Below are positions 3,544-52,937 of a stretch of DNA of 64,000 nt, piece after piece (the first letter of the stretch is position 1; each line of letters opens with the position of its first letter). This stretch comes from Dehalococcoidia bacterium (lineage in GTDB: Bacteria; Chloroflexota; Dehalococcoidia; Lucifugimonadales; UBA3495). The stretch lies in NCBI GenBank assembly GCA_965262595.1, contig OZ253548.1, forward strand, positions 1,371,740-1,435,739, given 5' to 3'. Under the pieces are notes generated by a model. It saw only the letters and a program-made list of their open reading frames with translations. It did no database searches and had not been told where the DNA came from. The position numbers were made by a program, and so were the translations under genes.

Positions 3544-3675
3544 TATAGCATACGGCTACGTGATTAACGGGGTGAGTCATGCCGGCGGAACGGGCAACGA
3601 TTACCGGGGGTAAGGCAATAATTCGGTTGCGTTGGGCTGCTTTGCGATTGTCCCGGGCCGATTGGGCAGGTAGTC

Positions 3676-3716
3676 TTGGAGAATAGGCGCAGATATGCTA
3701 ATATTTGAGTACTCAA
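3676..3716 (+). promoter_or_regulatory. sigma70-like promoter (TTGGAG-17 nt-TAATAT) followed by the perfect 12-bp palindrome TTGAGTACTCAA
   Basis: -35 at 3676-3681 and -10 at 3699-3704 with an exact 17-nt spacer. The palindrome is at 3705-3716, then AGGAGG at 3719-3724 and ATG at 3732. Confidence 0.45.
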
Positions 3717-3731
3717 GCAGGAGGTGCCGCT

Positions 3732-4364
3732 ATGGCCGAATCTGATTTCAGAACCTATTACGACTTCCGTTGACCCTTCGTATATAACGCTGCCATGTGG
3801 CTGGCGAAGGTACGAGCAACCACCGGACAGGAAATTGACGTTGACTGGCAGCCTTTCTCCCTGGAGCAGGTGAACAGCGACAAGGGCGAGGACTTCAAGT
3901 ATTGGGAACAGCCGGGCGCCCTCGACGGCTCCGACAATACCCTCCTGGCTCACCGGGCGGGACTAGCCGCGAAGCGTCAGGGCAAAGAGTCCTTCGAGGC
4001 ATTTTTCATTGCCCTGTTGAAGCTGCGCCACGAAGACCGAAAGAGCCTGACCGAACCGGCAGTCATCGACGAAGCGGTCAACAACTCCGGTATTGATATG
4101 GCTCGCTTCCGGGAAGACCTGGCTGATCCCGACCTGCTGCGGGAGATTGGGGAAAGCCACACCATCGCGGTGGAGGAGCACGGCGCATTCGGCGTACCTA
4201 CTTATGTGTTCCCCAACGGCGCAACTGCCTTTGTTAAGATGCACATTCCTCCCGATGAAGCGGCCGGCGAGATTTACGAGTCGCTGACCCGGGTAATTAC
4301 CGGCGCACAGCACGTAGGCGAGCTCAAGCGCCCGTCGCCCCCGTGGCCCCACGGCATCATCTAG
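3732..4364 (+). CDS. DsbA-like thioredoxin-fold protein with in-frame TGA (candidate Sec) at codon 14
   Basis: The track ORF 3795..4364 extends in frame to ATG 3732, which has AGGAGG 7 nt upstream. The N-terminus reads MAESDFRTYYDFR-[TGA 3771-3773]-PFVYNAAMW, so the TGA falls at the DsbA-family active-site Cys position. Confidence 0.6.
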
Positions 4365-17488: not shown

Positions 17489-17860
17489 TCAGCCGGCGTC
17501 AATTCCCGCATCGGTCAAGGCTTGACCGATGACGTTCAAGTTAGCGCCGATAAGCAATTTGCCGCCCAACCGGGTCACCGGACGCCGGATTAAGCGCGGT
17601 TCCTGAAGCATCAGTCTCAACAATTCGGCGTCGGGTAGTTCCTGCCCGGCCAAGCCCAACTTCTTCAGGCTGGGACTACGCCAGGCAAACAGCTCAGACA
17701 GCGGCGCCAGCGTGGCAAGGTGGTTAATTTCCGTCTCGCTGAAGGGTTCCTTAAAGAAATCCCGTTCCTCCAATTCCAGTCCCTTTTGTAAGAGCAACTC
17801 CCTTACCTTGCGGCAGGAAGATCAACGGGGCCACCAGAAAAACTCTGCCTTTTCGCTCAT
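17489..17860 (-). CDS. ArsC/Spx-family thioredoxin-fold protein with in-frame TGA (candidate Sec) at codon 13
   Basis: The track ORF 17489..17797 starts at an internal TTG. The same frame continues to ATG 17860, which follows GAGGTG. The N-terminus reads MSEKAEFFWWPR-[TGA 17824..17822]-SSCRKVRELLLQKG, which matches the family CxxC(R/K)KA motif. Confidence 0.65.
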
Positions 17861-18031
17861 ACACACCTCGGGCGAGCCTGCTTTCTTTACCTGTATTTGA
17901 CTAGCTCTCCAGGCTCCGGCTCACCGCCACCGATATTTTAGCCATTGTGGTCAAGAAACTGAAAGCGTTGAGCGGGCCATTGTTGGAGCAATTGCAAAGC
18001 GGTTGAGCCGCTGGTTATCCGGGCCGGGGAT

Positions 18032-21923: not shown

Positions 21924-24824
21924 TCAGCCCGCGGCCGCCCTGGCCGCTTCATCGGACTTAACTACCCGGGCCGCAAGGATATCCAGCCCAGGCACTTTGG
22001 ACATAGGATCCGGGTCCTCCGATGCTTGAAGGTCAACCGCTAGTTGGCCGAAAAGAGTCACCACCGAAACCACGCCGGCGGGTATTTCGGAGTCCACCCT
22101 GGCCAGACCGGCCAAACGGCCTCGTCGGGTCTGCACTTCCACCATATCACCTTCGGAGATAGACCAGGAGTCGGCGTCCGACGGGTTCAGCTCTACCAGT
22201 TCATCACGGACGATCCGGTTGCGGCTAACGTTGCCGCTGCTGCTGCCGCTAGTCTCGGTTACCACGTTGATTTCCCGGTCTTCCTGGAACAGCACCCGAC
22301 CCGGAACAAACCAGGCCGGATATTCTTCATCCGGCGGCGCCTGGGAAGAGCGGAACCGGGGAACGATTAGTTCGGCCCGGCCCGACGGGAAACCGTCAAG
22401 ATATAAGACCGCGGTACCGACCCTGGACGTTGTCGAGCCGGGCCACTGAATGCCCCGGTACTCTTTACTGGCATAGAGGAGCTGGGTGGGCTTGGGACTT
22501 TCCAGACCGCTGCGCAGTACCAAAGCGGATTCCGACTCCAGCCTCCCGTAGGATAGGCCGGCGTAGTTGGGCACAACCTGGACAATTTCGTCCATCACCG
22601 CTTCGGCGGACGGGTAATCAAAACCCGGGGCGCCAAGCCTTTTGGCCAATTCGATAAGGAACCACTGTTCGGACTTGGCCTCACCTTTTCCAGGGGCTAA
22701 AACGGGCCGGATTCTCTGGATGCGCCGCTCCAAATTGGTATAAGTGCCATCCTTTTCGGCAAAGGTCGAACGGGGCAGCACCACGTCGGCCAATTGGGCC
22801 GGAGCGCTGAGAAAAGAATCCATCACCACCAGGAAATCTAGGTTTCGGAGGGCGTCCAAGCCCTCTCCCAACCGGCGGTTAGCGAGATTGGAACTGTCGC
22901 CAATTACCATCATCGCCTTGACCGATCCATCCCGGGCGGCGGCTAGTGTTTCAGCGATGCCTCGACCCGGCGCGGTGGGCAGCGAGCATTCCCAACGCTC
23001 CTCCAGTTCGCGGCAGGTCTGGCTGTTCCGTCGGGCGTCGGCTTCGGAGAGGAAGCCCGGTCCAACTCCGGGCAGGCGGTTGGGGATACAAGCCATGTCC
23101 CAGGAACCCTGTTCGTTGGCGCCCTGACGCATCGGGTAGATACCGGCGCCGGGTTTGCCCACGTTTCCGGTCAGCAAAACCAGGTTAACCAGGGCATTGA
23201 CACAGTCCCGTTGCAAATCTTCAGGGACGTTATCCAGAGCGTAGCATAGAGCAGCGCAATCCGCCTCTCCGAACAGTCGAGCGGCTTCGGCAATCCGTTC
23301 CTGAGAGACCTGGGTAATTGCCGCAACTTCACCCAGGTCCAGGTTGTTCAAATAATAGTAGAGTGTAGTGGGGGACTCACAATTGCGCTCAATCCACTCC
23401 GTATCTACCAGGCCTTGGTCTAGCAGCTCCCGCAGGATGCCACCCAGAACCAATAGCTCGGTGCCGGGGGCGGGCCGGAGCCAGCAGCGGGTATAACGGG
23501 TCAGTTCTACTTCCCGGGGGTCGATAACAACCAGATTTGCGCCGTTCTGCACTGCCCGCTTAATCGGCACGCCCACCACGTTGTTGGCCTCGGTGAGGTT
23601 GGAATTAAAAACCAGGATGCAACCGGCTTGCTCCAAGTCCCAGATAGGATTGGTCGCCGCCCCGTAACCCAGGGCTTGCTCCAGGGCAATGGTTAGTTCC
23701 GGCTGAACGTTAGAGGTGAGGTCCACGTTATTGGAGTTCATCACTGCCCGGGCAAATTTCTGCGCCAGGTAGAGTTCTTCGTTGGTGCCGTCGGGCGAGG
23801 CCAGCAAGGCGAAGGAATCGCCTTTATACCGGGAAAGCTGCCCGGCAACAAAGTCCAGCGCTTCCCCCCACGTAGCCTCGACCAGGTTTCCATTGCGGCG
23901 AATCATCGGTTGCCGCAACCGGCTCCGGCTGTTGATGAACTCCAGGCCAAACTTACCCTTAAAGCAAGCCTGCCCCCGATTGGCCGGAGAATTATGCTCC
24001 GGTACGACCCGGATAAGCTCGCCGCGGCCGTTTAGTTCCAGATTTAGCTGGCAGCCGACCGGGCAGTGGGGACAGACGGTACGTTCTACCGTCCGCGCCT
24101 TTTCCCACTTATGTTCCCGTTCCACCAGCGCGCCCACCGGACAAACATCGATGCAGGAGCCGCAAAACTCGCAGCCCGATTCCAGCAGAGAGGAGCCAAA
24201 AGAGGTGCCGACCAAGGCTTTACCGGACCGCTCGGTGAAGGTAATTGCGTTATCGCCGCGAATTTCCTCGCAGGCCCGTACACAGCGTCCACAGGTGATG
24301 CACAAGTTATAGTCCCGGTCATAGAAAGGGTCGCTGACTTCCAGGGGAATCTGCTTGTAGTTGTAATTGAGGGCCGATTCCAGCTCCATCCCCAGGTAGC
24401 GCACCGTGTCCTTGAATTCGCAGCGTTCGTTCTTGGGGCAGGTGACGCAGCGGTCATTAACCGACACATGGCGGAGACAAATATCGTTGGGGCCGCAAAT
24501 ATCAACGCGGTGGCAGGTGAGACAGCCGCTGGGATGCTCGGCGATGAGCATTTCCATTACTGAGCGACGCAGTTCATTTACTTCATGAGTCTCGCTGCGG
24601 ATGCTCATACCGTCCTGAACCGGCAGGGTGCAGGCGGCGGGATAGCCCCGGCCGCCTTCCACCGAAACAACGCACATTCGGCAGGCGGCAAAGGGTTTCA
24701 TGCCGGGGTGATAGCACAAGTAGGGGATATATATGCCGGCGTCAACCGCCGCTTCCAGGACCATTTTTCCGGGCTGAGTTTTTATCTCGATTCCGTCAAT
24801 GGCGATGGTGATATCGTCGGGCAT
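21924..24824 (-). CDS. NuoG / formate-dehydrogenase-alpha-like Fe-S molybdopterin-fold subunit
   Basis: The N-terminus has a 2Fe-2S domain, several 4Fe-4S Cys clusters and the CPHCPVGC motif, followed by a molybdopterin oxidoreductase fold. No Cys or Sec was seen at the FdhF ligand position. Confidence 0.8.
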   Translation of the reverse strand: MPDDITIAIDGIEIKTQPGKMVLEAAVDAGIYIPYLCYHPGMKPFAACRMCVVSVEGGRGYPAACTLPVQDGMSIRSETHEVNELRRSVMEMLIAEHPSGCLTCHRVDICGPNDICLRHVSVNDRCVTCPKNERCEFKDTVRYLGMELESALNYNYKQIPLEVSDPFYDRDYNLCITCGRCVRACEEIRGDNAITFTERSGKALVGTSFGSSLLESGCEFCGSCIDVCPVGALVEREHKWEKARTVERTVCPHCPVGCQLNLELNGRGELIRVVPEHNSPANRGQACFKGKFGLEFINSRSRLRQPMIRRNGNLVEATWGEALDFVAGQLSRYKGDSFALLASPDGTNEELYLAQKFARAVMNSNNVDLTSNVQPELTIALEQALGYGAATNPIWDLEQAGCILVFNSNLTEANNVVGVPIKRAVQNGANLVVIDPREVELTRYTRCWLRPAPGTELLVLGGILRELLDQGLVDTEWIERNCESPTTLYYYLNNLDLGEVAAITQVSQERIAEAARLFGEADCAALCYALDNVPEDLQRDCVNALVNLVLLTGNVGKPGAGIYPMRQGANEQGSWDMACIPNRLPGVGPGFLSEADARRNSQTCRELEERWECSLPTAPGRGIAETLAAARDGSVKAMMVIGDSSNLANRRLGEGLDALRNLDFLVVMDSFLSAPAQLADVVLPRSTFAEKDGTYTNLERRIQRIRPVLAPGKGEAKSEQWFLIELAKRLGAPGFDYPSAEAVMDEIVQVVPNYAGLSYGRLESESALVLRSGLESPKPTQLLYASKEYRGIQWPGSTTSRVGTAVLYLDGFPSGRAELIVPRFRSSQAPPDEEYPAWFVPGRVLFQEDREINVVTETSGSSSGNVSRNRIVRDELVELNPSDADSWSISEGDMVEVQTRRGRLAGLARVDSEIPAGVVSVVTLFGQLAVDLQASEDPDPMSKVPGLDILAARVVKSDEAARAAAG

Positions 24825-24878
24825 TCCATCCTCTCCGGCCCGGCCTTGAAACCGGGCTAGGTAACGGGCGTTGTTAGT

Positions 24879-26642
24879 TTATCTCCGGCTGAGTTGGGGC
24901 GAAAAATAAGGCGCACAGCAGCGTCCGGTAGGGCAAAGTCGCTCGTTAATGTGAGTATCGAACTCGTCGGCAAAATAACGCAAGGCCGAGGCTACCGGAT
25001 TAAAACCCAACTGCCCGTGACCGCACAGCGAACCGGCCTGCATATTTTCGCCAATGGTCCGCATCAAAGCCAGGTCTTCCGAGTTCCCCTCCAGACGGGT
25101 AATACGTTCCAGCACTTCCAGCAGATGGCTCATACCCATTCGGCAGGGGAAACACTTGCCGCAGGACTCATACTGGCAAAAGGCGATGAGTACCCGGGTC
25201 AAGTCCACCACGCAGGTGTCCTCGTCGGCGGCAATGATTCCACCGGAACCAAGGATGGCTCCGGCGTTGCGAAACACTTCAAAATCCAGGGCCAAATCGG
25301 TGGCTTCGGCGCTAAGGACGCCGCCCAGCGGCCCGCCGGTTTGGATAAACTTGAGCTTCCGCCCATTGGGAATGCCCCCGGCAATTTCGTAAAGCACATC
25401 CTGCAGATTGATGCCCATCGGCAGTTCCACCATGCCGGTATAGTTCAAAGCGCCGGTGAGACAGAGAATCACCGTGCCGGTACTGCGTTCGTGGCCGATG
25501 CCGGCGAACCATTCGCCGCCGCGAGCGATAATCTCCGGAACGTAGGCCAGGGTCTTGACGTTATTTACGTTGGTTGGCTTGCCGAACACCCCGACCTGAG
25601 CCGGAAAGGGCGGACGGTACCGGGGCATGGCGCGGCTACCCTCGATGGCCTCCATGAGGGCGGTTTCCTCGCCGGAAACGTAAGAATCCCCGGTCAATGC
25701 AATTTCCAGGTCGAAGCTGAACCCGGAACCGAGGATATTTTCGCCCAGCAAGCCCAACTCGTAAGCCTGGGCGATGGCGGCGCGGGTCCGCTCGATGGGG
25801 CCGTCGTGCCCGTGGCGAATAAATATATACCCGTAATGAGCGCCGGTGGCGTAGCCGGCCAGAATGATGCCCTCCACCACCGTATGCGGATCGCTTTCCA
25901 GGATACCTTTATCGTTAAACGCGCCCGGGTCGCCTTCCTCGCAATTGCACAGGACATACTTGACCGGAGCATTTGACCCGGCCAGGAACCGCCACTTGGT
26001 CCCAGTGGCAAAGGCGGCGCCGCCCCGGCCCCGCAGACCGGAAACGTTGACTTGCTCCAGGACGTCGGCGGCGGTCATTTCGGTCAGGGCTTGATTCAGG
26101 GCATGATAGCCGCCGTTAGCCACATACTGGAACAGGTCCAGCGGGTCAATATGTCCGGCATTGCGCAGGGCGATACGCTGTTCCCTGGCCCGCATGGGGT
26201 GACGGTTCAAGTCAGGTAAGCCTGCGGCATGGGACGGGGCGACATTCGGGGAACCACTCTCCGGGTCGCCGTCTTTTTCGTCGTCACAACCCAGGTAACC
26301 CAGGGCCAGGTCTTCCAGCGGTATTCCATGTAATACGTGGCGAACGACAATCTCCTCGGCTCTCTCCGGGGTAACATTGCCATAGAAGACGCGAGACTGG
26401 CCGGGCACCAGCACATCCACCAGGGGTTCGGCAAAACAGAGGCCCAGGCACCCAACCCGGCTTACCGCAGCGGTCGCGCCGTGCCGCTTCAGGGACTCTT
26501 CGATGGCCCTAACTACTTCATCGGCCCCGGCGGCTTGGCCGCACAAAGCTGTGCCCACCCGAATCCAGGTATGGCTGCCTTTAGTCAACGACTGCCAGCG
26601 TTGCCGGGCCTGAGCCTGAATGTCCTCAAAGGTTGGGGCCAT
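24879..26642 (-). CDS. NuoF-like NADH-binding FMN/4Fe-4S subunit with N-terminal thioredoxin-like 2Fe-2S domain
   Basis: The motifs GGAAFATGTKW, CNCEEGDPGAF and ESCGKCFPCRMG are present. Confidence 0.85.
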   Translation of the reverse strand: MAPTFEDIQAQARQRWQSLTKGSHTWIRVGTALCGQAAGADEVVRAIEESLKRHGATAAVSRVGCLGLCFAEPLVDVLVPGQSRVFYGNVTPERAEEIVVRHVLHGIPLEDLALGYLGCDDEKDGDPESGSPNVAPSHAAGLPDLNRHPMRAREQRIALRNAGHIDPLDLFQYVANGGYHALNQALTEMTAADVLEQVNVSGLRGRGGAAFATGTKWRFLAGSNAPVKYVLCNCEEGDPGAFNDKGILESDPHTVVEGIILAGYATGAHYGYIFIRHGHDGPIERTRAAIAQAYELGLLGENILGSGFSFDLEIALTGDSYVSGEETALMEAIEGSRAMPRYRPPFPAQVGVFGKPTNVNNVKTLAYVPEIIARGGEWFAGIGHERSTGTVILCLTGALNYTGMVELPMGINLQDVLYEIAGGIPNGRKLKFIQTGGPLGGVLSAEATDLALDFEVFRNAGAILGSGGIIAADEDTCVVDLTRVLIAFCQYESCGKCFPCRMGMSHLLEVLERITRLEGNSEDLALMRTIGENMQAGSLCGHGQLGFNPVASALRYFADEFDTHINERLCPTGRCCAPYFSPQLSRR

Positions 26643-27509: not shown

Positions 27510-28160
27510 CTACTCGCCCTTCAAATACTGATTCATCGCCGACTTGAAAATATCGTAGGGTTGGGCGCCGGTGAAGAGCAGGTTGCCTACCACAAAAGTT
27601 GGTATTCCCCGGATGCCGTACTGCAGCGCCTCCTGGTATTGCTCCATCACCTTGGAGGAATAATGACGGCTTTGCAGCCGGTCCATCAGCTCGTCAGTGT
27701 CCAGGCCCACCGACCCGGCCACCTCTTCAATCGCCGCTAGTTGCCCCAAGTCCTTCCCGTCCTCCCAATAGGCCTTATAGGCGGCGTGGTGAAACTCCAT
27801 AAACTTGCCCTGCTGCTGGGCATACTCGGTGGCTTCCAGGGCATAGCCGGTATTGGGAGTAACCCGGGGCGGACGCATAATCAGGTTAGCATCGCGCACC
27901 TGAGAGCGAATTGGCTCGCTCAACTCGTCCTCGGTTTCTCCGGAACGGGCTTGACGCTGCAAGCCCTCTTTGGGGGTATCCGGACGGAGCAAGTAAGCCC
28001 GCCCCTCCACGGCAATGTTATAGTCCTGGCCCAACTTGTCGACCCGCTCCAGGCCGACGTAGCACCAGGGTCAAATATAATCGTACCAAACGATAACCCT
28101 TACCGGATCTGAGCCGTTCAGGTCGGAGCTGTTATTTGGTTGCGATACCGATTCAGTCAT
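27510..28160 (-). CDS. FrnE/DsbA-like dithiol oxidoreductase with in-frame TGA (candidate Sec) at codon 30: U-P-W-C motif
   Basis: The track ORF 27510..28034 starts at an internal TTG. The frame continues to ATG 28160, with AGGAGG 6 nt upstream. The sequence reads ...VRVIVWYDYI-[TGA 28073..28071]-PWCYVGLERV, against the family consensus CPWCY. Confidence 0.75.
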
Positions 28161-32532: not shown

Positions 32533-32576
32533 GCCTATAGTACCATACGGGCGCACACGCACGTAGGGGGGTGTCT

Positions 32577-33944
32577 ATGGCCGACCGCAACTTTGCCAAC
32601 CGGACGCTGTACCACGGCGACAACATGGACTTCCTGCGAGGAATGAACTCCGGTACAGTCAATCTTATCGCTACCGACCCGCCCTTCAACAAGTCCCGTG
32701 ATTTTCACGCTACCCCCGACAGCCTGGCTAAAGGGGCCAGATTTGTTGACCGCTGGAGTTGGGATAGAGATGTTCACGAAGAATGGGTGGACGCTATCAA
32801 GGATGATTGGCCCGGTGTCTGGCAGGCCATAGAGAATGGCCGGGTTAATCATAGTCCAGGCATGGCTGCTTTTCTCTGTTGGTTAGGGATTCGTTTAATC
32901 GAAATGCGTCGTGTTTTGGCCGATGATGGGAGTATCTATCTGCATATCGACCATACTGCCCACGCCTACGCCAAAGCCTTGATGGACGCTATCTTTGGGC
33001 AACGCAACTTTAGAAATGAGCTTGTTTGGTGCTATAAATCAGGGGGTGCGAGTCCTTCACGATACTTTAGTCGGAAGCACGACACAATTTTGTGGTACAC
33101 CATAGGAAGGCAGTATTGTTTTAATCCCCAGCAAGAAAAGTCCTATAATCGAGATTTCAAGCCTTACCATTTTGCTGGTGTCAAGGAATATAAAGACAAT
33201 AAAGGCTGGTACACACTCGTTGGGATGAAGGACTATTGGGAAATTGACATGGTTGGGCGGACGAGTGGAGAACGTACCGGCTTCCCTACGCAAAAACCAT
33301 TGGCCCTCTATGAGCGCATCATCCACGCCAGTAGCAACCCCGGCGATGTAGTCCTTGACCCATTCTGCGGGTGTGCCACCACGCCCATTGCGGCTGAACG
33401 CTTGGGCCGTCAATGGGTAGGTATGGATATTTGGGACGGGGCGGTTGACGCTGTGCGAGCAAGAATAGCCGACAACCGCCAGCTATTGACCGAATCCAAT
33501 CCAACGATTACCTACGCCACCACCCCGCTGGAGCGCACCGATAATCCCGACCCCCACACTCCAACCGTACCTGATTTACAGTTGCGGATACGTCGGATAA
33601 AGGAACGCTGGGAGAGGCTTTCCCACGCCGAGATGCGGGATATACTCGCCACCGCTCAAGCAAGCGGGGATAGCGTAGTTTGCGCCGGTTGCGGTATCGC
33701 CCTTCCCGTCCGTTATATGCAACTAGACCACCGGGACCCACGAAAGGACGGCGGGGAGAACCTAATCACCAACCGGATTCTGCTGTGCGCTCCCTGCAAC
33801 AACTTAAAGCGGGCTGAACTGACACTTTCTGGATTAGTACGGGATAACAAGCGGGCCGGGTATATGGACAATGAGGCTATGGCAGACCTGGCCCAGACCA
33901 AAGCGAGGGACGCCGCCAACCGATGTAGGGCTGAAATGAGATAA
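32577..33944 (+). CDS. N4/N6 DNA methyltransferase (beta-class, DPPF) fused to a C-terminal HNH nuclease domain
   Basis: Motif IV is LIATDPPFNKSRDF and motif I is VLDPFCGCATTPIAAERLG. The C-terminus reads CAGCG...LDHRDPRKDGGENLITNRILLCAPCNNLKRAE. The start is ATG 32577 or GTG 32571. Confidence 0.8.
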   Translation: MADRNFANRTLYHGDNMDFLRGMNSGTVNLIATDPPFNKSRDFHATPDSLAKGARFVDRWSWDRDVHEEWVDAIKDDWPGVWQAIENGRVNHSPGMAAFLCWLGIRLIEMRRVLADDGSIYLHIDHTAHAYAKALMDAIFGQRNFRNELVWCYKSGGASPSRYFSRKHDTILWYTIGRQYCFNPQQEKSYNRDFKPYHFAGVKEYKDNKGWYTLVGMKDYWEIDMVGRTSGERTGFPTQKPLALYERIIHASSNPGDVVLDPFCGCATTPIAAERLGRQWVGMDIWDGAVDAVRARIADNRQLLTESNPTITYATTPLERTDNPDPHTPTVPDLQLRIRRIKERWERLSHAEMRDILATAQASGDSVVCAGCGIALPVRYMQLDHRDPRKDGGENLITNRILLCAPCNNLKRAELTLSGLVRDNKRAGYMDNEAMADLAQTKARDAANRCRAEMR

Positions 33945-33956
33945 GGAGAGTCAAGT

Positions 33957-34091
33957 ATGGCAACGAACCGGAACAAAAGGGAACCGGAAAAGCCGGTGGA
34001 GACACCAAAGCCGCCACGTACCTGCACCTGCGGCATTGAAATTGAGAAAGCTAAAAGGTTGTGTGCCGAGGCCGACTGCCCCTATCGGTAG
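33957..34091 (+). CDS. 44-aa Cys-containing small ORF (below the ORF-track cutoff)
   Basis: AAGGAGAG lies 6 nt before the ATG. The product is MATNRNKREPEKPVETPKPPRTCTCGIEIEKAKRLCAEADCPYR, with four Cys. Confidence 0.3.
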   Translation: MATNRNKREPEKPVETPKPPRTCTCGIEIEKAKRLCAEADCPYR

Positions 34092-34117
34092 TCTGCCCCT
34101 GCAATGGGAGGAAGATT

Positions 34118-35164
34118 ATGGCCGAATACACCGATACCATTACCACCAAGATACTCTGCCCCGATTGCGACTCCCCCGACGTGGTGAAGCACGGCTTCCA
34201 GAACGGCCAGCAACGCTATCGCTGTAAGCCCTGTGGCAACCGCTTTCGTTACAACGGCAAACCACAGGGCCGGCAACTCCAAAGCGAACATACCGGGGCG
34301 GCGGTCAGAATGTTCTACATGGGTATGTCCTATAAGCAGATTGCCGAAACTATGGAGAAACAGCACGACATCCCCGAACCTTCCAAGCACACCGTCTATG
34401 CCTGGGTCAAGCGATACACCGATGAGGCCGTTACCGAAAGCCGCAATCCCCAATACCGGGCGCATACCGGCGATGTTTGGGTTGCTGACGAAATGCAGGT
34501 CGTGGTCGGCGGCGAGAAGTATTGGCATTGGAACGTGATGGATGAGGATACCCGCTACGTCCTCGCCTCTTATCTGACCAAAGAACGGACTACCAGGGCG
34601 GGTACGGAGGTAATGCGCCGGGCCAAGTTAGCCGCCGCCAATGAACCGAAGGAAATCAAGACGGATAGGCTGAGTTCCTATGACGGGGCCATAGACCGCG
34701 TATTCCCCCTGGCCAAGCACGTCAAAGCGGACGGGATACAGGCGGAAGTCAACAACAATATGTCGAAACGGCTACAGGGTAGCTACCGCTCCCGTACCAA
34801 GACCCTGCGGGGATTGGACAGCCGGGAGACGGGGCAAAGGTATCTGGACGGCTGGACGCTGACCTACAACAATTTCCGAGACCACGAGGGCGCGGACGGG
34901 GAACCGCCGGCGGTCAAGGCCGGAGTGAAACTGCCCTATGACGAATGGGCGGACGTGGTACGGGGCAATGACGGCTCGCCGGACCAAATGCACGAATACC
35001 GGAAGGTTGCCGCTCTGGAACGGCCCACCTACCGGATTGTGCCGCCGTCAGGAATGGGGGAACCGGCTTTCCGGCGGCGGGCTACACCGAGAAAGCCGAG
35101 GGGGATGGGCGGGTCTAGCGGCACTCGCAAAATCGTGGTGACGGGCAAGGCAAGTGTCGGCTGA
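34118..35164 (+). CDS. DDE transposase, IS6-like, with N-terminal Zn-finger
   Basis: GGGAGGAAG precedes ATG 34118. The Zn finger is CPDCDSPDVVKHG...YRCKPCGNRF. The DDE-type core reads WVADEMQVVVGGEKYWHWNVMDEDTRYVL...IKTDRLSSYDGAI. Confidence 0.8.
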   Translation: MAEYTDTITTKILCPDCDSPDVVKHGFQNGQQRYRCKPCGNRFRYNGKPQGRQLQSEHTGAAVRMFYMGMSYKQIAETMEKQHDIPEPSKHTVYAWVKRYTDEAVTESRNPQYRAHTGDVWVADEMQVVVGGEKYWHWNVMDEDTRYVLASYLTKERTTRAGTEVMRRAKLAAANEPKEIKTDRLSSYDGAIDRVFPLAKHVKADGIQAEVNNNMSKRLQGSYRSRTKTLRGLDSRETGQRYLDGWTLTYNNFRDHEGADGEPPAVKAGVKLPYDEWADVVRGNDGSPDQMHEYRKVAALERPTYRIVPPSGMGEPAFRRRATPRKPRGMGGSSGTRKIVVTGKASVG

Positions 35165-37992: not shown

Positions 37993-38661
37993 CTAAATCG
38001 CCGCCCTTATTTCCTCAACCAAGGAATTGATGCGGTTGGCTTGAGCTATATTGAATATGCCGGTAATCTCATCGCTCCGATAGCCCACCAAGTCGGTAGG
38101 CACCGCGTTGGATACGATGTAAAAGGGAGATGTCTTGTTTTGGCGTCGGAACTTTAGGGCGTTGGCTTGGGCTTTCTTCCAGGTGTCCGAGCGTTCCAGC
38201 CCGGGCCTATAAATGGTGGTCACTGTATCGTCCGGGTTCTGCACGTAACGGGGCGACCCTTTGGTTTCAATGGCAACTCGGGGCGTAACCTCCAGATCAT
38301 GAGTGTTGGTATTGCCCGGGGTGGCTACAGCCGGCAGTTCAAACCTGGTGGACAAGAGATACCGCACTGCGCTTTCAAAGACCTTTCCAACTATTGACGA
38401 CCGGGCTTGAAAAGTAGCTACCTCAAACACCCTGCCGGAATCGCATAAAGGGCATTTCAAAGGCATATTGCCAAATGCCGCGGTAGTAGTTCCACCACCA
38501 ATACAAGCCACGCAGGCCCAAGCCGGATAGCAGGCAACTGCGTCAATAGCCTGTTGAAAGCAGCCATTGAAGTAATTTTGCAGCCGCCCGTTGGTTAATT
38601 GCCGGTTACTGATAGGCGGATAATTAGCCCGGACGATTTCATCATACGGAATAGCCGGCAC
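37993..38661 (-). CDS. type II restriction endonuclease candidate (Cys-cluster N-terminus + PD-(D/E)xK core)
   Basis: The core reads HDLEV...VAIETKG (D...ExK). Cys clusters are CYPAWACVAC...CPLC. It overlaps the 3' end of the adjacent methylase by 20 nt. Confidence 0.55.
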   Translation of the reverse strand: MPAIPYDEIVRANYPPISNRQLTNGRLQNYFNGCFQQAIDAVACYPAWACVACIGGGTTTAAFGNMPLKCPLCDSGRVFEVATFQARSSIVGKVFESAVRYLLSTRFELPAVATPGNTNTHDLEVTPRVAIETKGSPRYVQNPDDTVTTIYRPGLERSDTWKKAQANALKFRRQNKTSPFYIVSNAVPTDLVGYRSDEITGIFNIAQANRINSLVEEIRAAI

Positions 38662-39628
38662 TGCTCACCTCCGCGATAATCCGACCATCGGGATTGACCT
38701 GGACAAAGAGTTGGGGCGATGCCGCCAAACGGCGGTAGGCCAGGGCCTGGTATTCCGGGGAAATCTCATAGCCCACAAACCGGCGGCCGGTGTTCAGCGC
38801 GGCCAGAGCCGTGGTGCCGCTGCCCATAAAGGGGTCCAGCACCACCTCGTCCGAGTAGGTGTAAAGCTCGATGCAGCGGCGGGGGAGCTCCTCGGGAAAG
38901 GGGGCGGGATGCCCGATGCGCCGGGCCGATGTTGCGGGGAATTGCCAGATGCTACGGGTACACGCCAGGAAATCGTCCCGGCTGATGGTGGCTTGGCGGT
39001 TGGGGAGTTTGGGCCGCCGCCAGGTGTCCTTGCAGAGAACGAGGATGTATTCGTGGACATCCCGCAGCGTGGGGTTGGTGGGGGACTTCCAACTGCCCCA
39101 GGCGGTGGAGGATGCGGCGCTGGCCGCCTTGTCCCAGATGATTTCCCCCCGCATCAAGAAGCCCAGTTCTTGCAAGTCCTCAATGATGTAGCGGTGCAGG
39201 GGCAGGTAGGGACGGCGGCCCAGGTTAGCGATGTTGAAGCAGATCCGACCGCCCGGCACCAAGACCCGGTGGACCTCCCCCATCACGGTGCGGAGGAAGT
39301 CCCGGTACTCGGCCAGGGTCAGGTCTTCGTCGTATTCCTTCCCCACGTTATAGGGCGGAGAGGTCACCATCAGGTGGACGCTGCAATCGGGCAGGGCGTC
39401 CATCTTCTCTGCCGAAACGGGCAGGATGGTATTGGCGACACCGTAGGGTAGGGGATTTTCTACATACGCAACCCGGCGTTCCGCCGGCTGGTCAGCGTAA
39501 AGCCGGCCGGCGTAGAAGCGCGAGGAGTCATGCCCATGCCGCCCCGCCGCCCCAAAGGCGGAAGTTTGGGTTTTCCACCCCAAATTGTCGGGGGGGGGGG
39601 GGGGTAGATTGTTATTATCGGAATTCAA
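38642..39628 (-). CDS. N4-cytosine/N6-adenine DNA methyltransferase (beta-class, SPPY)
   Basis: Motif IV is LMVTSPPYNVGKEY and motif I is VLDPFMGSGTTALAA. It has a TTG start, and the N-terminus contains PPPPP encoded by the G15/C15 tract. Confidence 0.85.
   Translation of the reverse strand: MNSDNNNLPPPPPDNLGWKTQTSAFGAAGRHGHDSSRFYAGRLYADQPAERRVAYVENPLPYGVANTILPVSAEKMDALPDCSVHLMVTSPPYNVGKEYDEDLTLAEYRDFLRTVMGEVHRVLVPGGRICFNIANLGRRPYLPLHRYIIEDLQELGFLMRGEIIWDKAASAASSTAWGSWKSPTNPTLRDVHEYILVLCKDTWRRPKLPNRQATISRDDFLACTRSIWQFPATSARRIGHPAPFPEELPRRCIELYTYSDEVVLDPFMGSGTTALAALNTGRRFVGYEISPEYQALAYRRLAASPQLFVQVNPDGRIIAEVSSAGYSV
39590..39604. repeat. homopolymer G15 (C15 on the coding strand) inside the methylase 5' end
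   Basis: Counted directly in the sequence. It encodes Pro x5 at codons 9-13. Confidence 0.9.
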
Positions 39629-41321: not shown

Positions 41322-42275
41322 TTATCGGTTGACTTGACTGACATGAGGGCTGTCCACTGCCGTGACATAACGGGCTTCATCTTCCAAGAGCATCAATTGT
41401 TCCATTTCCCCAGTCGGTTCTTTGGCAAAGTTGCCGGGTTTGTAATTAGTAACGATTGCTTCCAGCATGGCTTTTCTGTTTCTCTCGTAGGCGCCAACGT
41501 GATAAAAGTGCTCTTGGGTCAAAATAGAAAATTCGCTCCAAAGCTCCTGGATGAACCGGTTCTCCCGGTGCTGGTTACTATGCCATGTGGACAACATGAA
41601 CCTTGCACGGGTGTTCTTCAAGCTAGTATGCAGCAGATTTTCCTTGTGCGCATCCCAAGTTTGATAATAGTCAACATGTCGGTCAACGTAGGGTGGGTCG
41701 CAATACACGAAGTCGCGGTCTGTAGCGTCCTGAATTGTTTTCTGGAAGTCCTGGCAGACAAAGCTCCAGTCGAGCACCTGTGTGGCTGCTCTAAAGCGCT
41801 CCACCTGATTGACTATTTTCGTAATGTAAGCCGGTGCGAATCGCTTCGGTTTGTGCCCATACGGAACATTGAAGTGTCCTTTACTGTTGAACCGGACGAG
41901 TCCGTTAAAGCAAGATCGGTTAAGGAAGAGGAAATCCAGTGGGTAGCCAAATGAATTGAAACGGTCCCTGACACGGTAGTAGTGGGCCTTTCCTTCATTT
42001 GCAAGCAAGACCCCTTCACGTTCGAGAAAAATCCTTGTTTTCTTCCCGTCTATTTCCCCGTCCTTGATGGCCTGATAAAACCGAATCATGTGGGGGTTGG
42101 TATCTGCCAGTATGGCGTTTTGGGGTAGAACATTTAGAACAACTACCCCGGAACCCAGGAACGGTTCGATCCATGTTCCTTCAGTATCCCGGTCGAGGCA
42201 CCGCAATATAGTCGGGACCAGCTTGGTCTTGATGCCCTGGCACTTTAGCGGAGGTACTAGTATTCGCAAATTCAT
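41322..42275 (-). CDS. Dam-family (D12 class, alpha) N6-adenine DNA methyltransferase, M.EcoRV-like
   Basis: Motif I is EPFLGSGVVVLN and motif IV is VYCDPPYVDRHVDY. It overlaps the upstream nuclease gene by 4 nt. Confidence 0.85.
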   Translation of the reverse strand: MNLRILVPPLKCQGIKTKLVPTILRCLDRDTEGTWIEPFLGSGVVVLNVLPQNAILADTNPHMIRFYQAIKDGEIDGKKTRIFLEREGVLLANEGKAHYYRVRDRFNSFGYPLDFLFLNRSCFNGLVRFNSKGHFNVPYGHKPKRFAPAYITKIVNQVERFRAATQVLDWSFVCQDFQKTIQDATDRDFVYCDPPYVDRHVDYYQTWDAHKENLLHTSLKNTRARFMLSTWHSNQHRENRFIQELWSEFSILTQEHFYHVGAYERNRKAMLEAIVTNYKPGNFAKEPTGEMEQLMLLEDEARYVTAVDSPHVSQVNR

Positions 42276-43201
42276 CCCCCGCCACGACGTCGCCGGGACT
42301 TGGGGACAACTTTCGTCTCGTCCCCGCCACGGTATTTAACGAAATCAATCATATTACGGATTGTACGTGTCTCACCCGAATTTTCTCTTATAGTAATGCT
42401 ATCATAATTCATCCAATAGTCATCAAACCAATTTTCTCCGAGTAGAGAGAACATACCCTTTCCCAAAACTATGTCATCAATCTTGGTGACGCTACCAATA
42501 TTTGCTGTGTTGCCACTGCCTCTCCTGTCACTGGCGATTTTCCATTTTTCCTGTACAAAGAACTGAAAATTCCGAATTACTGAAACAATGGACTTAAGGT
42601 CATCCAATTGATTTGTCGTCGCTTCGTTTACCGACTCGTCAACGCTACGTGAATATATTATTCCTAAACAAAAGTGACTCAAATAGTCTTTATAAGGGAA
42701 CTGAATATTCTTGGTACTGTTGCGATTCTTGAAGTACTCGCCGTGTGACCCGAGGGTAAAGCCATTGCAAAAGTCCGGAGTGCCTTCGACTCGATAGGTC
42801 GTCTTGAAGTCAACGGCAAACTTTACCTCTGGATTTGTCATCTTTACAAAAGAGAGGTCCGGGTAATAGTTTTGGTGTTCAGGGAGAACCAATCCAAAGC
42901 CTGTCTGCTCGGCAAATAGCATGAGCTTCGGGAAAAGGTGTATTTCAAGTATCTTGGACACGACTTTAGTGTCGGATGAGATAGCATATATGTTGCGATA
43001 AATGTCTATAAAACCCTTGATCGCCCACTGTCCGTCTTCTGTCTGTACCACGTCACCAAGGTCAGCGACGAAGCTTGTCAGAGCATCTTGGAATGACCTT
43101 TTCTCTTCTTCCTTATCCAATCTAATCTCCAGTTCGTAGCAAGTAGTCGCGAAAACACCCCAAAGATCAATTGCACTCGCACGAACGGACCAGAAAACCA
43201 C
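42272..43201 (-). CDS. type II restriction endonuclease, EcoRV-like
   Basis: Blocks match EcoRV as I remember it: SSDTKVVSKILE, HQNYYPDLSF...KFAVDFKTTY (the PD...D-x-K core), FTLGSHGEYF, QEKWKIASDRRGSGNTANIGS and FDDYWMNY. Confidence 0.75.
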   Translation of the reverse strand: MVFWSVRASAIDLWGVFATTCYELEIRLDKEEEKRSFQDALTSFVADLGDVVQTEDGQWAIKGFIDIYRNIYAISSDTKVVSKILEIHLFPKLMLFAEQTGFGLVLPEHQNYYPDLSFVKMTNPEVKFAVDFKTTYRVEGTPDFCNGFTLGSHGEYFKNRNSTKNIQFPYKDYLSHFCLGIIYSRSVDESVNEATTNQLDDLKSIVSVIRNFQFFVQEKWKIASDRRGSGNTANIGSVTKIDDIVLGKGMFSLLGENWFDDYWMNYDSITIRENSGETRTIRNMIDFVKYRGGDETKVVPKSRRRRGGG

Positions 43202-47331: not shown

Positions 47332-48747
47332 TCAGCAGAAGTTTTGCGTGAAATAAACTCTCTCATCGGAGGAGACAGCCACACCAATACCTTCCTTGTC
47401 GTAACTGCTATCCAAGATGTTAGCCCGATGGCCCGGGCTATTCATCCAACCATTTACTGTAATTTCGGCGATTTCCTCCAAAGTGTACCAGTCTTTGCTA
47501 ACCAACACTCCGTTAAGGTTAGTAGTGGAGCCGTAAAGCCCACCCTGAAAAATGTTCTCAGCCAAGCCAAAAGTGAAATAACTGCCATAGTCCTTCCGGC
47601 AGTCATAGCCCTGTCGGGTGCCCCGGTCAGTAGGACTTTCCCCGGCAAGATTAGTATGCGAAAAGTAACCAAAATCCGCCATATCTTCACTGTGGAATTT
47701 AGCAATACTGGCTAGTTTTGCGTCATACTCCAAAGCGCCCAGCCCGTGTTCCCGCCTTTCTTCATTTGTCAACTGATGAACCAGACGAGCCATTTCTTCG
47801 ACTTGGTGGGTCTGAGTGACGGGACCAAGAGTAGGCCGAGGAGTCGGGGCAGGGATAAGCGTTGAGGTGAGGGTTGGCTCAGGGCGCGACGCCGTCGAGT
47901 GAGGCGTTGCATCAAATCCGATCGTTACGGGCATCTTCCCCGTGGCGAGGAATTCGTCAAATTGTTCCCTGGTCAAAGCAACTTCAACGCCGGTTTCCGG
48001 GTGGTTGACCAAGAAAGCAAACGAACTGGGCGGGATTGGCGTTACCGTCGGTGGTACATTAGCCGCAGTTGGCTCCGGAACGACCGTAACCGCGACCGCT
48101 GGCTCCAAAGCTGGCTCCAAAGCTGGCTCCAAAGCTGGCTCCAAAGTTCGTTCCGAAGTTGGCTCAACCAATACCGCAGGTAGGAGAGCTTCGGTGGGCG
48201 CCACCAAGAGTTCCCTGGCCGGTTCACTCATCGAATTGGCCGGCGACGTTTCGGGGCGATTCCTCTCACGAACACCTTGAGACCGCTCCTCACCCGGCAG
48301 GGATGACCTACCATTAGATGCGTTGACCATCTCCGCAATTAGCCCGACAACTGAGCTGGGAATGGTAATAACGCGATTTAGGGCAACTGCAACAGCGCGC
48401 TCCGGCCCCAAATTACCCTGTTCCTGGAAATCTTGCCATACACCCAGTCCAGCCCAAAGCAGGATGGCGACGACAATTACGGCTACCAGTTTCATGAGCT
48501 TTCCACCGGACTTGCGGCGTCCAGGTCCGGGGACTACTACCCGGTTTGGCCGAGCTCGACCCTGAGGCCGAACTGTATTGGCTGGTTCAGGCCGAGTCCG
48601 ACCGGACGGCCTTGAGGTGATGTCCCGGCCCCGCCAGACTTGCCGCCCTGGCTGGTAACCCCCTCTTCTTGCCACGCAGGAAACACAGGTGCAGGCCGGC
48701 GGATGACTACCTCGCATATAGTTTCGGTCATCAAGAGGCATAGACAA
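47332..48747 (-). CDS. membrane-anchored CAP/SCP (YkwD-like) domain protein
   Basis: The C-terminus has NSPGHRANIL and FSHTN motifs. It has an N-terminal TM segment and a (LEPA)n repeat linker. Confidence 0.7.
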   Translation of the reverse strand: MSMPLDDRNYMRGSHPPACTCVSCVARRGGYQPGRQVWRGRDITSRPSGRTRPEPANTVRPQGRARPNRVVVPGPGRRKSGGKLMKLVAVIVVAILLWAGLGVWQDFQEQGNLGPERAVAVALNRVITIPSSVVGLIAEMVNASNGRSSLPGEERSQGVRERNRPETSPANSMSEPARELLVAPTEALLPAVLVEPTSERTLEPALEPALEPALEPAVAVTVVPEPTAANVPPTVTPIPPSSFAFLVNHPETGVEVALTREQFDEFLATGKMPVTIGFDATPHSTASRPEPTLTSTLIPAPTPRPTLGPVTQTHQVEEMARLVHQLTNEERREHGLGALEYDAKLASIAKFHSEDMADFGYFSHTNLAGESPTDRGTRQGYDCRKDYGSYFTFGLAENIFQGGLYGSTTNLNGVLVSKDWYTLEEIAEITVNGWMNSPGHRANILDSSYDKEGIGVAVSSDERVYFTQNFC

Positions 48748-48814
48748 CCTCCTTTTCCTCTTGCCCTCTTGTCTCCGGCGAAAAACCGCCCGCCTCTACA
48801 TTACAAACCCGCCT

Positions 48815-50050
48815 TTACTCTACAAAGATGGAGTAGTTGGTTAGAACCACCGGCGCCCCTTCAGCCCTGGCCCAAATGTGTACCGTATAGACGCCGGGAC
48901 CGGAAGCTTCCAGGATGGGGGCCAGGTCGGCAGCTACCCGAAAGTCGGAACCGGAAATATCCCAAACGGCTGCGGTAGTCCAGGGAACGGCCCAGGTATG
49001 GGTAACATCCACCCGCAAGGGCGGCGCGGTGATCCGGGCCAACCCGTCGTCCAGAGTGTAAGGGTCGATACCCGATTTCCAGCCATAGTTGAACACCGAA
49101 TCCGGATAATAATGGCCTTCCGCCAGGGGCCGGCGCAGGAATGTGGCCGGGTATTGGCCGTTGCCATAGGAATAGGTGGCGTCAAGGCGGCCCGGCGTTA
49201 AAGGCTGTAGCGGCTGGTGAAACCAAAGGGCAACGCTGTCAAACTCCAGCCCGTCCCGTAAGGTACCGGCAAAGCTGAGGACGCTCCCCGATATTTGGGG
49301 CCGATCATTGAACTCCAGGTGTCCTCCCTCAAATTGCTGCACCACCCAGCAGTTGAAATAGTTACAGGCAATCCCCAGGTTAACCGACCGGTGCCACTCA
49401 TCGAGAATATTGGCCCGATGCTCCGGACTGGTCATGAACCGCTCCTGGACCGCGATCAATAATTGGTCGGGCGACAACCCGGATAGCTCCGGTTCAGAAG
49501 TTTCATCGGTTTCATCAGTTTCATCGGTCAAGAGTTCCGGGCCGGAAATGTTCTCCAGCTCCCGATTGAACCCGCCGCCCCGGGTGTAACGCATATATGG
49601 AGTCAGCCCGTCCATTCCCCAGTGGGATCGGTAATTGCGCCGCATCATATCTTCCGCATGCTGTTGAGCGGCGGCATTGGCGCCAATAGCCAGAGCGGCC
49701 AAATTGTTCGCAGCGCGATCGGTGTTGATCAAGCCGAGCATGAACTGTTGACGCCGCAGGAGTTCTACCGATTCGGCCGGTGAAGAAACTGACGGACCTG
49801 TGGCAATGCCAGGAGAAGACCCGGAGGTGTAGGCGGCGGCAGTTGGTTCGCCCGCTGGCAAGCCGTCTGACGGTTGGGGTTGTGCGGCCAATTCCGGTGT
49901 TGAGCGCAACCGGTTTAGAGCAGAGCCAATAGACCGGCCGACCGCAAAATCACCGTGCCGCTGATAGTCTTGCCAGGCGACAATCCCGACTATGCCCAAC
50001 AGGGCCAGGGCAAACAGGCCGCTCAGGCCAAAAACTAGCTTGCGATACAT
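48815..50050 (-). CDS. membrane-anchored CAP/SCP domain protein (paralogue)
   Basis: It has TSPEHRANIL, an N-terminal TM segment and a (TDE)n repeat. Confidence 0.7.
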   Translation of the reverse strand: MYRKLVFGLSGLFALALLGIVGIVAWQDYQRHGDFAVGRSIGSALNRLRSTPELAAQPQPSDGLPAGEPTAAAYTSGSSPGIATGPSVSSPAESVELLRRQQFMLGLINTDRAANNLAALAIGANAAAQQHAEDMMRRNYRSHWGMDGLTPYMRYTRGGGFNRELENISGPELLTDETDETDETSEPELSGLSPDQLLIAVQERFMTSPEHRANILDEWHRSVNLGIACNYFNCWVVQQFEGGHLEFNDRPQISGSVLSFAGTLRDGLEFDSVALWFHQPLQPLTPGRLDATYSYGNGQYPATFLRRPLAEGHYYPDSVFNYGWKSGIDPYTLDDGLARITAPPLRVDVTHTWAVPWTTAAVWDISGSDFRVAADLAPILEASGPGVYTVHIWARAEGAPVVLTNYSIFVE

Positions 50051-52310: not shown

Positions 52311-52937
52311 CTAACCTCTTTGACTCGTTTCTTCAATGTAGGCCAGAGGATTGTGCAAGAGGCTTTCGCCATTCATGAATCTCCCGAGTCCTGTATTGCA
52401 ACTGTCGCAGAGATACCCACGTGCGCGGCCTCCGTGGTGGTCGTGGTCAATGACCACCCAGACATTCACCCCGACAATACCCATTTTCCTGCAAATCGGG
52501 CATTGCCATAGCGTACCTTCGGCAGGCTTCAACCGCTGGGCTTCAGCCCGGGCTTCCTTGGTGAGACTACGTCGGTCGATGTCAACCCTACAACTTTGAC
52601 AGCTCGGGCGGCGAGTCTTTTGCCCTTTGGCGTCCGTCTGATTAACGTCAAAACTATCTTTGGGCTTTACCACAAAGCACCGATTACAAATGATGTTCGG
52701 AAAACCTTTGCCTGTCTTGGAAACATCAAACGACCTTGTATCTTTCTTGGCGACAATGAATGATGTACGTTGTCCGGGCAAAAAGACTTGTACTTCTTCA
52801 CCTTTTTCATCCTCCACTACACCTATTGAGTTTAGCGGAAAATGCGTACGGGTCGGTTCTCGAACATCATCCTGAACAACAAACCCCAATGACCCGGAAC
52901 AACGTACCCAATAATCGTTGCCTATTCTTCCGGGCAT
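52311..52937 (-). CDS. HNH / endonuclease-VII-like nuclease (restriction endonuclease candidate)
   Basis: The C-terminus reads DHDHHGGRARGYLCDSCNTGLGRF, with several CxxC pairs. It overlaps the 3' end of the adjacent methylase by 16 nt. Confidence 0.6.
   Translation of the reverse strand: MPGRIGNDYWVRCSGSLGFVVQDDVREPTRTHFPLNSIGVVEDEKGEEVQVFLPGQRTSFIVAKKDTRSFDVSKTGKGFPNIICNRCFVVKPKDSFDVNQTDAKGQKTRRPSCQSCRVDIDRRSLTKEARAEAQRLKPAEGTLWQCPICRKMGIVGVNVWVVIDHDHHGGRARGYLCDSCNTGLGRFMNGESLLHNPLAYIEETSQRG

Follow-up and report, generated by a model that had tools for sequence, protein, structure and literature searches.

DsbA-like selenoproteins have been known since 2005, when proteins with a UxxC motif (U, selenocysteine [Sec]) were reported from the Sargasso Sea ('form 1'; Zhang, Fomenko & Gladyshev; PMC1088965). 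A catalogue of prokaryotic selenoproteomes from 2026 added a 'DsbA-like protein form 2' with the domain PF01323 and the motif DxxUP, the representative of which bears the name crotonase/enoyl-CoA hydratase (PMC13188914). The closest solved protein by sequence is DR2335 of Deinococcus radiodurans (DR_2335; PDB 7DK9, native, and 7DKA, C24S), which two reviews call DsbA-like, with a predicted location in the cytoplasm and one conserved Cys, and for which they give no functional data (PMC8945050, PMC6300522). Literature retrieved on 7DK9/DR2335 consisted of reviews only, in which its function was stated as unknown. The gene analyzed here lies at positions 3732 to 4364 on the plus strand of a 64-kb stretch of Dehalococcoidia DNA (the window). 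Very probably, these positions form one gene encoding a 210-residue cytoplasmic DsbA-fold selenoprotein, in which Sec14 is specified by an in-frame TGA. It adds one more case to a class already described, and the richness of its lineage in selenoproteins was published in 2026.

The window gene was assigned to form 2 by motif (D11-F-R-U14-P15) and domain (PF01323), not by the sequence of the form 2 representative. With these known DsbA-like selenoproteins it shares PF01323, an N-terminal active-site Sec-UGA and a hairpin resembling a selenocysteine insertion sequence (SECIS) just 3′ of that codon; it was not counted as form 1, as its motif (UPFV) has Val in place of the second Cys. Alignment with DR2335 (E = 2.6e-18, residues 8-203) revealed the same length class, the same FDFxCP(Y/F) pattern with one Cys, a C-terminal (I/L)(K/R)RP motif and, for both proteins, a predicted cytoplasmic location. 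The DR2335 motif LYFDF-L-C-P-Y-A puts Cys24 at the TGA column, and the two proteins differ in that DR2335 has Cys where the window gene has a putative Sec. The cytoplasmic DsbA fold is also common to the mycothiol-dependent reductase Rv2466c, the glutathione (GSH)-dependent cytosolic disulfide reductase DsbM and FrnE (template modelling [TM] scores 0.55-0.69), all of which rely on a low-molecular-weight thiol for turnover. Rv2466c and FrnE carry a CPWC dithiol, whereas the window protein would have a single Sec and no Cys; identity to these proteins is 16-20%.

Translation from the ATG at 3732 reads MAESDFRTYYDFR, followed by the TGA at 3771-3773, then PFVYNAAMWLAKV and the TAG at 4362-4364; the segment spanning residue 14 is TYYDFR-U-PFVYNAAMWLAK. 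The AGGAGG sequence at 3719-3724, the 7-nt spacer and the ATG at 3732, as given in the initial annotation, were all verified on the sequence. Directly 5′ of the start codon, a GGxGG-type sequence (an in-frame 'GG') is present in most of the 80 relatives described below, and in several relatives the N-terminus is bounded by an in-frame stop a few codons further 5′. The translated product contains no Cys and its motif reads U-P-F-V, which agrees with the single-Sec form, with Val at the second motif position, that had been proposed for it. As the product is devoid of Cys, the TGA column would hold its sole thiol- or selenol-type residue. Neither a CxxC nor a UxxC dithiol motif is present in the window protein, the family having CP(Y/F)(V/A/S) throughout. 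By inspection only, no signal peptide was seen at the N-terminus MAESDFRTYYDFR, which is polar and leads straight into strand b1. The open reading frame (ORF) listed for this locus starts at Met22 (ATG 3795) and loses the active site, as had been pointed out: this start drops strand b1 together with the active-site residue. Database records are 174-194 aa long and named 'hypothetical' or 'DsbA family'.

With Cys placed at the TGA, the Pfam model DSBA (PF01323) matched residues 9-164 (E = 9.5e-17, 61.8 bits against a cut-off of 25.6). This match spans the TGA, and the profile thus requires residues N-terminal to Met22. The Rv2466c-like model (PF22234) scored 37.7 bits against a cut-off of 27; CPWC is absent and structural identity amounts to 16-19%. 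NCBIfam holds no model for the DsbA-like family of the window protein. An AlphaFold (AF2) model of P0036, a Cys-type positional orthologue, had a predicted local distance difference test value of 90.4 and a predicted TM score of 0.88. Residue 14 in this model is located between strand b1 (6-10) and helix a1 (15-31); its predicted place, at the N-terminus of helix a1, is the one held by the nucleophile in the classical thioredoxin fold. Foldseek ranked DR2335 first (TM 0.77, 30-33% identity), followed by YjbH, Rv2466c, kappa-class glutathione S-transferase (GST), HCCA isomerase, DsbM and FrnE; the matches after DR2335 represent the cytoplasmic branch of the DsbA fold. By likeness to DsbA-fold structures, the GAFGVPT loop probably serves as the cis-Pro loop.

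Using tblastn, one genome per GTDB species was scanned, resulting in 80 loci. All belonged to Dehalococcoidia, SAR202 or Chloroflexota metagenome-assembled genomes, with 63-89% identity to the window protein and, in nearly all genomes, coverage of residues 1-210. TGA was found at the column in 80 of 80 species-level genomes. Across all related loci scored at this column, from genomes and metagenomes, 111 of 114 had TGA and the other three had TGT or TGC (Cys). These counts show that the in-frame TGA did not arise by chance. Protein searches returned two length classes. The full-length class (201-210 aa) carries Cys at the TGA column, with the N-terminus M-A-D-S-D-F-T-I-F-Y-D-F-R-C-P-F-V-Y-N-A; the other class (189-197 aa) starts with MWLAK or (M/V)YNAA, immediately past that column. 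In total, Cys at the TGA column was recorded in eight Cys-type (TGY) gene loci and in eleven Cys proteins of 201-210 aa. Even when the metagenome scan was seeded with Cys-type proteins or their alignment, nearly all genes found were of the TGA type, and the eight Cys-type control genes were gathered individually. The placement of the TGA at the redox-Cys position was borne out by relatives reading FYDFR-C-PFVYNA, by Cys24 of DR2335 and by the DSBA profile running across the TGA.

One ENA cluster of 147 members (P0028; locus L083, 313-945) has Trp at the Sec column. Since its DNA reads TGA, this Trp is a wrong-code artefact of the gene caller, and artefacts of this type could mislead Cys/Sec homology screens.

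The codons 5′ of the TGA behave as coding sequence in the relatives, as had been anticipated: codons 1-13 are conserved as protein while their synonymous sites are free. Asp11 and Phe12 are both 100% invariant, yet their codons are divided about equally (GAC 55 and GAT 48; TTC 50 and TTT 53), which is the mark of translation in frame 5′ of the TGA.

For analysis of RNA structure, 78 nt around the TGA were aligned without gaps from the window and the 80 genomes (81 sequences), and the 73 distinct sequences were used for pair counts. The hairpin at 3788-3806 was paired in 91.4% of cells, compared with 16-67% when the 3′ partners were slid. Pair 24-42 of the alignment occurred as C-G in 39 sequences and as U-A in 33, a single sequence being exceptional; at pair 28-37, G-C was seen in 66 and A-U in 7, and the pair was never broken. 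Nineteen apparent breaks at the two middle pairs were traced to one sequence class, GCR...CUG-(U/A)CG, in which the bulge is shifted by two positions and seven pairs are retained (RNAfold). In 103/103 distinct genes, column 27 was a purine if and only if column 40 was not G. On a tree derived from codons beyond 30 only, at least 7 changes were required at column 40, at least 6 at column 24 and at least 8 at column 42. The joint 24-42 state needs only 9 changes, indicating repeated coordinated events and not a single inherited change.

The covariation called for in the initial annotation was thus found for 3788-3806 (pairs 24-42 and 28-37, columns 27 and 40), a shorter element than the one it had drawn. 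There, CCUUCG at 3775-3780 was paired with CGAAGG at 3805-3810, enclosing a GCC-AUGU-GGC tip. These two arms can pair and the tip is conserved, but the lower stem is not: pair 12-45 is broken in 35/73 and pair 15-42 in 25/73 sequences, and the latter behaves as two independent sites (21 joint changes against 14 + 8). The full stem corresponds to the minimum free energy (MFE) fold of 3771-3812 (-12.6 kcal/mol, z = -1.2). A different lower stem, that of the single-sequence MFE fold, was also ruled out as a conserved element, pair 16-49 being broken in 46/73.

Codon choice within the hairpin is restricted as well. Ala21 is GCC in 95/95 and Val22 is GTG in 55/55 genes, Leu24 is encoded by CTG or TTG only, and the least variable 8-codon windows of the entire gene begin at codons 17-20. 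Mean folding energy was -9.5 kcal/mol, against -5.7 kcal/mol for synonymous resamplings (median p 0.02; 28 distinct 24-mers). In the eight Cys-type genes, the corresponding segment was not more stable than its resamplings (-4.5 to -7.0 kcal/mol, p 0.27-0.71), and these genes are a natural control without the RNA constraints. Together, these observations show that the hairpin is a selected RNA element tied to the TGA state.

No match was obtained in Rfam, either for the whole window at the gathering threshold or for 3600-4000 at E<=10. To our knowledge, Rfam contains no general bacterial SECIS family, so that the absent match says little. The hairpin was also compared with the bacterial SECIS (bSECIS) model, which specifies an apical loop of 3-9 nt, an upper stem of 4-16 bp, a distance of 16-37 nt between UGA and loop, an MFE <= -7.5 kcal/mol and a G as first or second nucleotide of the loop (PMC13188914). 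The window hairpin, with a 4-nt loop and a 7-bp stem containing a one-base bulge, is within the limits for loop size and stem length; within theirs are also the gap of 21 nt between UGA and loop (3774-3794) and the folding energies of -9.2 kcal/mol (24-mer) and -22 kcal/mol (71-mer). In 55/103 family members the loop is GUGU, in accordance with the G rule. Like the E. coli fdhF-type SECIS and the bSECISearch consensus, the element is a hairpin inside the coding sequence, 3′ of the UGA, with a G-U dinucleotide in its loop; it differs from them in the bulged U of the 3′ arm, in G at the third loop position and in having no conserved lower stem.

A further constraint was found at Arg13, directly 5′ of the UGA, for which CGT is used in 103/103 TGA-type genes compared with CGC in 7/8 Cys-type genes; Arg28 uses all six codons. 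The frozen CGT could be a context effect of the -1 nucleotide. It could also derive from an alternative 5-bp helix, in which CGUUG at 3768-3772 pairs with YAAYG at 3785-3789; this helix would rival the SECIS-like hairpin and is mutually exclusive with two of its pairs. At the Arg13 position distant relatives have ACC or GTG, and the freeze is thus specific to this clade. CGU and CGC are normally decoded by one tRNA. For this reason, and given ACC or GTG in the distant relatives, the P-site tRNA was considered an unlikely cause.

An exhaustive profile search of 1.84 billion proteins yielded 627 cluster representatives at E<=1e-3, 48 of them at E<=1e-30. All sampled full-length distant members had the single-Cys motif (F/Y)-D-(F/Y)-x-C-P-(F/Y)-(V/A/S) and a C-terminal E-(I/L)-K-R-P; many other distant members begin directly past the motif. 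Two of the latter with <50% identity to the window protein, L125 (groundwater) and L127, were checked in their DNA: both carry TGA at this position, and each has a GGC...GCC hairpin whose loop begins with G (GUCU and GUU, respectively). In an approximate neighbour-joining tree rooted with DR2335, with short internal branches and no bootstrap, Cys-type genes were placed in two separate positions among the Sec-type genes. Their placement suggests Sec as the predominant state in the clade and at least two replacements of Sec by Cys. In Dehalococcoidia, the gene is the first of a conserved dsbA-like-rnc-ftsY cluster: rnc lies immediately 3′ in 80/80 genomes and ftsY is present in 79/80, while a divergent gene of the PolyA-polymerase/CCA type lies 5′ in 74/80. 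The Cys-type gene of locus L081 has the same gene context and is therefore a positional orthologue.

With respect to the genetic code, TGA ends 14 of the 50 gene-like ORFs in the window; it is thus a normal stop and has not been reassigned as in code 4 or 25. Indirect support for Sec capacity comes from two further thioredoxin-fold genes of the window, in which the first redox position is a TGA (Table 1). For the FrnE/DsbA-like gene (UxxC, form 1), a hairpin of -26.8 kcal/mol (z = -2.5) was obtained; its loop, GAG, begins 21 nt past the UGA, a spacing common to this gene and the gene at 3732-4364. Judged from its sequence, the ArsC/Spx-family gene is probably the third selenoprotein gene of the window. 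The ORF at 59780-61828 was considered as SelB and rejected, as it encodes EF-G.

Sec machinery in the genome from which the window derives is supported indirectly, through published related genomes. BSepDB, for which only species with at least two of SelA, SelB and SelD were screened, lists 49 selenoprotein genes for Dehalococcoidia bacterium UBA1141 and 46 for isolate 10f4566d-..., both among the ten richest bacteria (PMC13326102). These genomes correspond to loci L070 and L075, respectively, and both have TGA in the DsbA-like gene. In addition, tRNA-Sec genes of 8/4 structure are known from Chloroflexi (PMC5389517), and the Sec trait is on record for Dehalogenimonas and other Chloroflexi (PMC5029168 supplement). 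In the supplements of Peng 2016, DsbA subfamily detail is absent.

In the mechanism that we propose, translation would start at ATG 3732 and the UGA at 3771-3773 would be decoded as Sec. SelB carrying Sec-tRNASec is presumably recruited to the bulged hairpin at 3788-3806; with the apical loop 21 nt past the UGA, this hairpin would be positioned at the mRNA entrance when the UGA occupies the A site. The selenolate of Sec14 would then attack a disulfide, a mixed disulfide or another electrophile. Without a second Cys an internal selenenylsulfide is impossible, and the Se-S intermediate would have to be resolved by an external low-molecular-weight thiol or by a partner protein. The model for such resolution is the monothiol pathway of Rv2466c, DsbM and kappa-GST, which are related enzymes of the cytoplasm with a DsbA fold, and monothiol glutaredoxin-type chemistry offers a further analogy. 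Arguing from these enzymes, we give about an even chance to the protein being a mono-selenol thiol-disulfide oxidoreductase or transferase.

Two observations on relatives give weak hints of function. At locus L119 (4-1810), a Cys-type member has an AhpC/Redoxin gene on one side and an OsmC gene on the other, both of peroxidase families; no other neighbourhood seen hints at a role in redox defence. In three distant relatives of 414-423 aa (P0145, P0153 and P0216), dephospho-CoA kinase (CoaE, PF01121, E ~1e-46 to 1e-49) is fused to a Cys-type domain of the DsbA-like family, raising a possible functional link to coenzyme A (CoA).

Several points weigh against the proposed decoding and function. 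The presence of selenium in the protein itself is presumed. ARAGORN found no tRNA of any type in the 64-kb window, and hence no tRNA-Sec there; SelA, SelB and SelD were not found by Pfam searches of 40 of the 50 gene-like ORFs of the window, these being the likeliest sel genes by size. The window's own 24-mer was only marginally more stable than its synonymous resamplings (p ~0.1). In its loop, AUGU, the G is third, and the rule that a G occupies loop position 1 or 2 is not strictly followed. The consensus that RNAalifold gave for the 81 sequences was weak and unrelated (-2.2 kcal/mol). The hairpin was absent from it, probably owing to the shift of the bulge from one sequence class to another, and named structures were therefore tested. 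On the side of function, the rnc/ftsY neighbourhood offers no redox clue, and the role is proposed by analogy; DR_2335, the nearest relative, comes without functional data (PMC8945050).

As an alternative to a redox enzyme, the protein may be a transferase or isomerase resembling kappa-GST or HCCA isomerase that acts on a small molecule, possibly CoA-linked, or a non-catalytic adaptor resembling YjbH. We consider this rather unlikely, although it has several points in its favour: YjbH, kappa-GST and HCCA isomerase were retrieved by Foldseek at TM 0.57-0.62, three of the distant relatives carry a fused dephospho-CoA kinase, and transferase or isomerase chemistry fits a protein that is free of Cys and has one nucleophile. 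Kappa-GST and HCCA isomerase, however, activate GSH by Ser or Tyr and not by a Cys/Sec nucleophile. Retention of Sec in 111/114 genes argues for catalysis at residue 14 and thus against an adaptor, and the Cys-type member flanked by AhpC/Redoxin and OsmC genes points to redox. As to a CoA-linked role, no coaE was found near the gene in the window or at any of 128 loci.

A more specific form of the redox reading involves CoA as well. The DR_2335-like family might comprise unrecognised cytoplasmic mono-selenol or monothiol redoxins with CoA as thiol partner, acting for example in the removal of CoA from CoAlated proteins or in the handling of CoA disulfide. The hint comes from the three distant CoaE fusions and from the crotonase/enoyl-CoA hydratase name of the form 2 representative; among the 150 best family representatives, no crotonase fusion was found. 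We judge this improbable. If true, Sec would be nearly obligatory in such a redoxin in Dehalococcoidia (111 to 3), with its gene heading the rnc-ftsY cluster.

Concerning the residue itself, the UGA could be translated as an amino acid other than Sec: as Cys, through a selC*-type tRNA-Cys(UCA) and a SelB paralogue, or as Trp or Cys, through near-cognate read-through or an alternative code. For delta-proteobacterial components, experiments have demonstrated a UGA-to-Cys route in which a dedicated tRNA acts with SelB* (PMC5389517), and a SelB paralogue would likewise need a SECIS-like hairpin. This route was reported from delta-proteobacteria only, though, and hairpin-dependent insertion of Cys has no obvious advantage over TGY, yet TGA outnumbers TGY 111 to 3. 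One ENA pipeline did put W at the codon (P0028), where the DNA reads TGA as noted above. The use of TGA as normal stop in 14/50 ORFs stands against an altered code, and related genomes have been published with a Sec biosynthetic system and dozens of selenoprotein genes (PMC13326102). Translation of the UGA as a residue other than Sec is therefore very unlikely.

Even less likely is that the TGA is a genuine stop, the product being the 189-aa protein from Met22 (ATG 3795) and the upstream frame an untranslated leader. Every gene caller and public record has this or a similar short model, and no Sec machinery was found within the window. Against this, a start at Met22 deletes strand b1 and the active-site residue, which are aligned by the Pfam profile and by DR2335; purifying selection acts at the protein level on the 13 upstream codons in >100 genomes; and Cys-type orthologues of the same synteny are 210 aa long. 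A common start of the relatives at the equivalent of Met22, which had been named as evidence for such a leader, was not observed: this codon lies within the hairpin loop and is GTG (Val) in about half of them. Finally, a sequencing or assembly error or the mark of a pseudogene can practically be dismissed: the window derives from a single assembly, but 111 independent loci, which come from many studies and sequencing platforms, share this TGA, with the frame intact on both sides.

Table 1. Coordinates of the features of the gene at 3732-4364 and of two further putative selenoprotein genes in the window.
Feature	Position	Strand	Basis or remark
Shine-Dalgarno sequence AGGAGG	3719-3724	+	Read from sequence; 7-nt spacer to start codon
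Probable true start codon, ATG	3732-3734	+	ATG/GTG ~13 codons 5′ of the TGA in most of the 80 relatives
Full coding sequence, very probably 210 codons including Sec14, with TAG stop	3732-4364	+	Translation; Pfam DSBA; tblastn
Arg13 codon CGT, directly 5′ of the UGA, synonymous site frozen	3768-3770	+	103/103 TGA-type genes
In-frame TGA, putative Sec codon (residue 14), next base C	3771-3773	+	Alignment with Cys of relatives
SECIS-like hairpin: 5′ arm CGCUGCC (3788-3794), loop AUGU (3795-3798), 3′ arm GGC-U-GGCG (3799-3806), bulged U 3802	3788-3806	+	Covariation, frozen sites, codon choice
ATG of Met22, start used by the gene caller, product cut to 189 aa	3795-3797	+	ORF list
GAFGVPT loop, putative equivalent of the thioredoxin-fold cis-Pro loop (Pro156)	4182-4202	+	Invariant columns G151-T157 in family alignments
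TAG stop; rnc start ~20 nt 3′ without intervening terminator	4362-4364	+	Sequence reading
ArsC/Spx-like gene, KAEFFWWPR-U-SSCRKVRELL	17489-17866 (ORF 17489-17797); TGA ~17822-17824	-	TGA at first Cys of CxxC-type motif
FrnE/DsbA-like gene, VWYDYI-U-PWCYVG, UxxC (form 1)	27510-28034, on through TGA 28071-28073	-	Annotated ORF starts past the TGA

Other features of the window were recorded alongside. A formate-dehydrogenase/NuoG-like molybdopterin oxidoreductase of 966 aa, the ORF of which ends in TGA, adjoins a NuoF-like subunit (21924-26642, minus strand) and lies a few hundred bases from the UxxC DsbA-like gene. Restriction-modification genes are unusually dense (32571-33944, 38642-39628, 41322-43201 and 52311-53812); the set comprises an EcoRV-like endonuclease next to a D12-class adenine methylase, three N4/N6 DNA methylases (one an HNH fusion) and a His-Me finger endonuclease. 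An IS240-type transposase is located at 34061-35164. Two adjoining large proteins with CAP (cysteine-rich secretory protein) domains, which are more typical of eukaryotes, are encoded at 47332-50050 on the minus strand.

In >100 Dehalococcoidia/SAR202 genomes, this gene is annotated as a fragment of 174-194 aa without its active site. The corrected model would restore a complete thioredoxin-fold enzyme and would enlarge the selenoproteome of a lineage that is abundant worldwide in the sea and in association with sponges. In this DsbA-like family Sec appears to be the rule (111 to 3), with the resolving Cys absent, and the Sec/Cys pairs of matched synteny would provide a ready system in which to ask what benefit a single selenol brings to a DsbA-fold enzyme.

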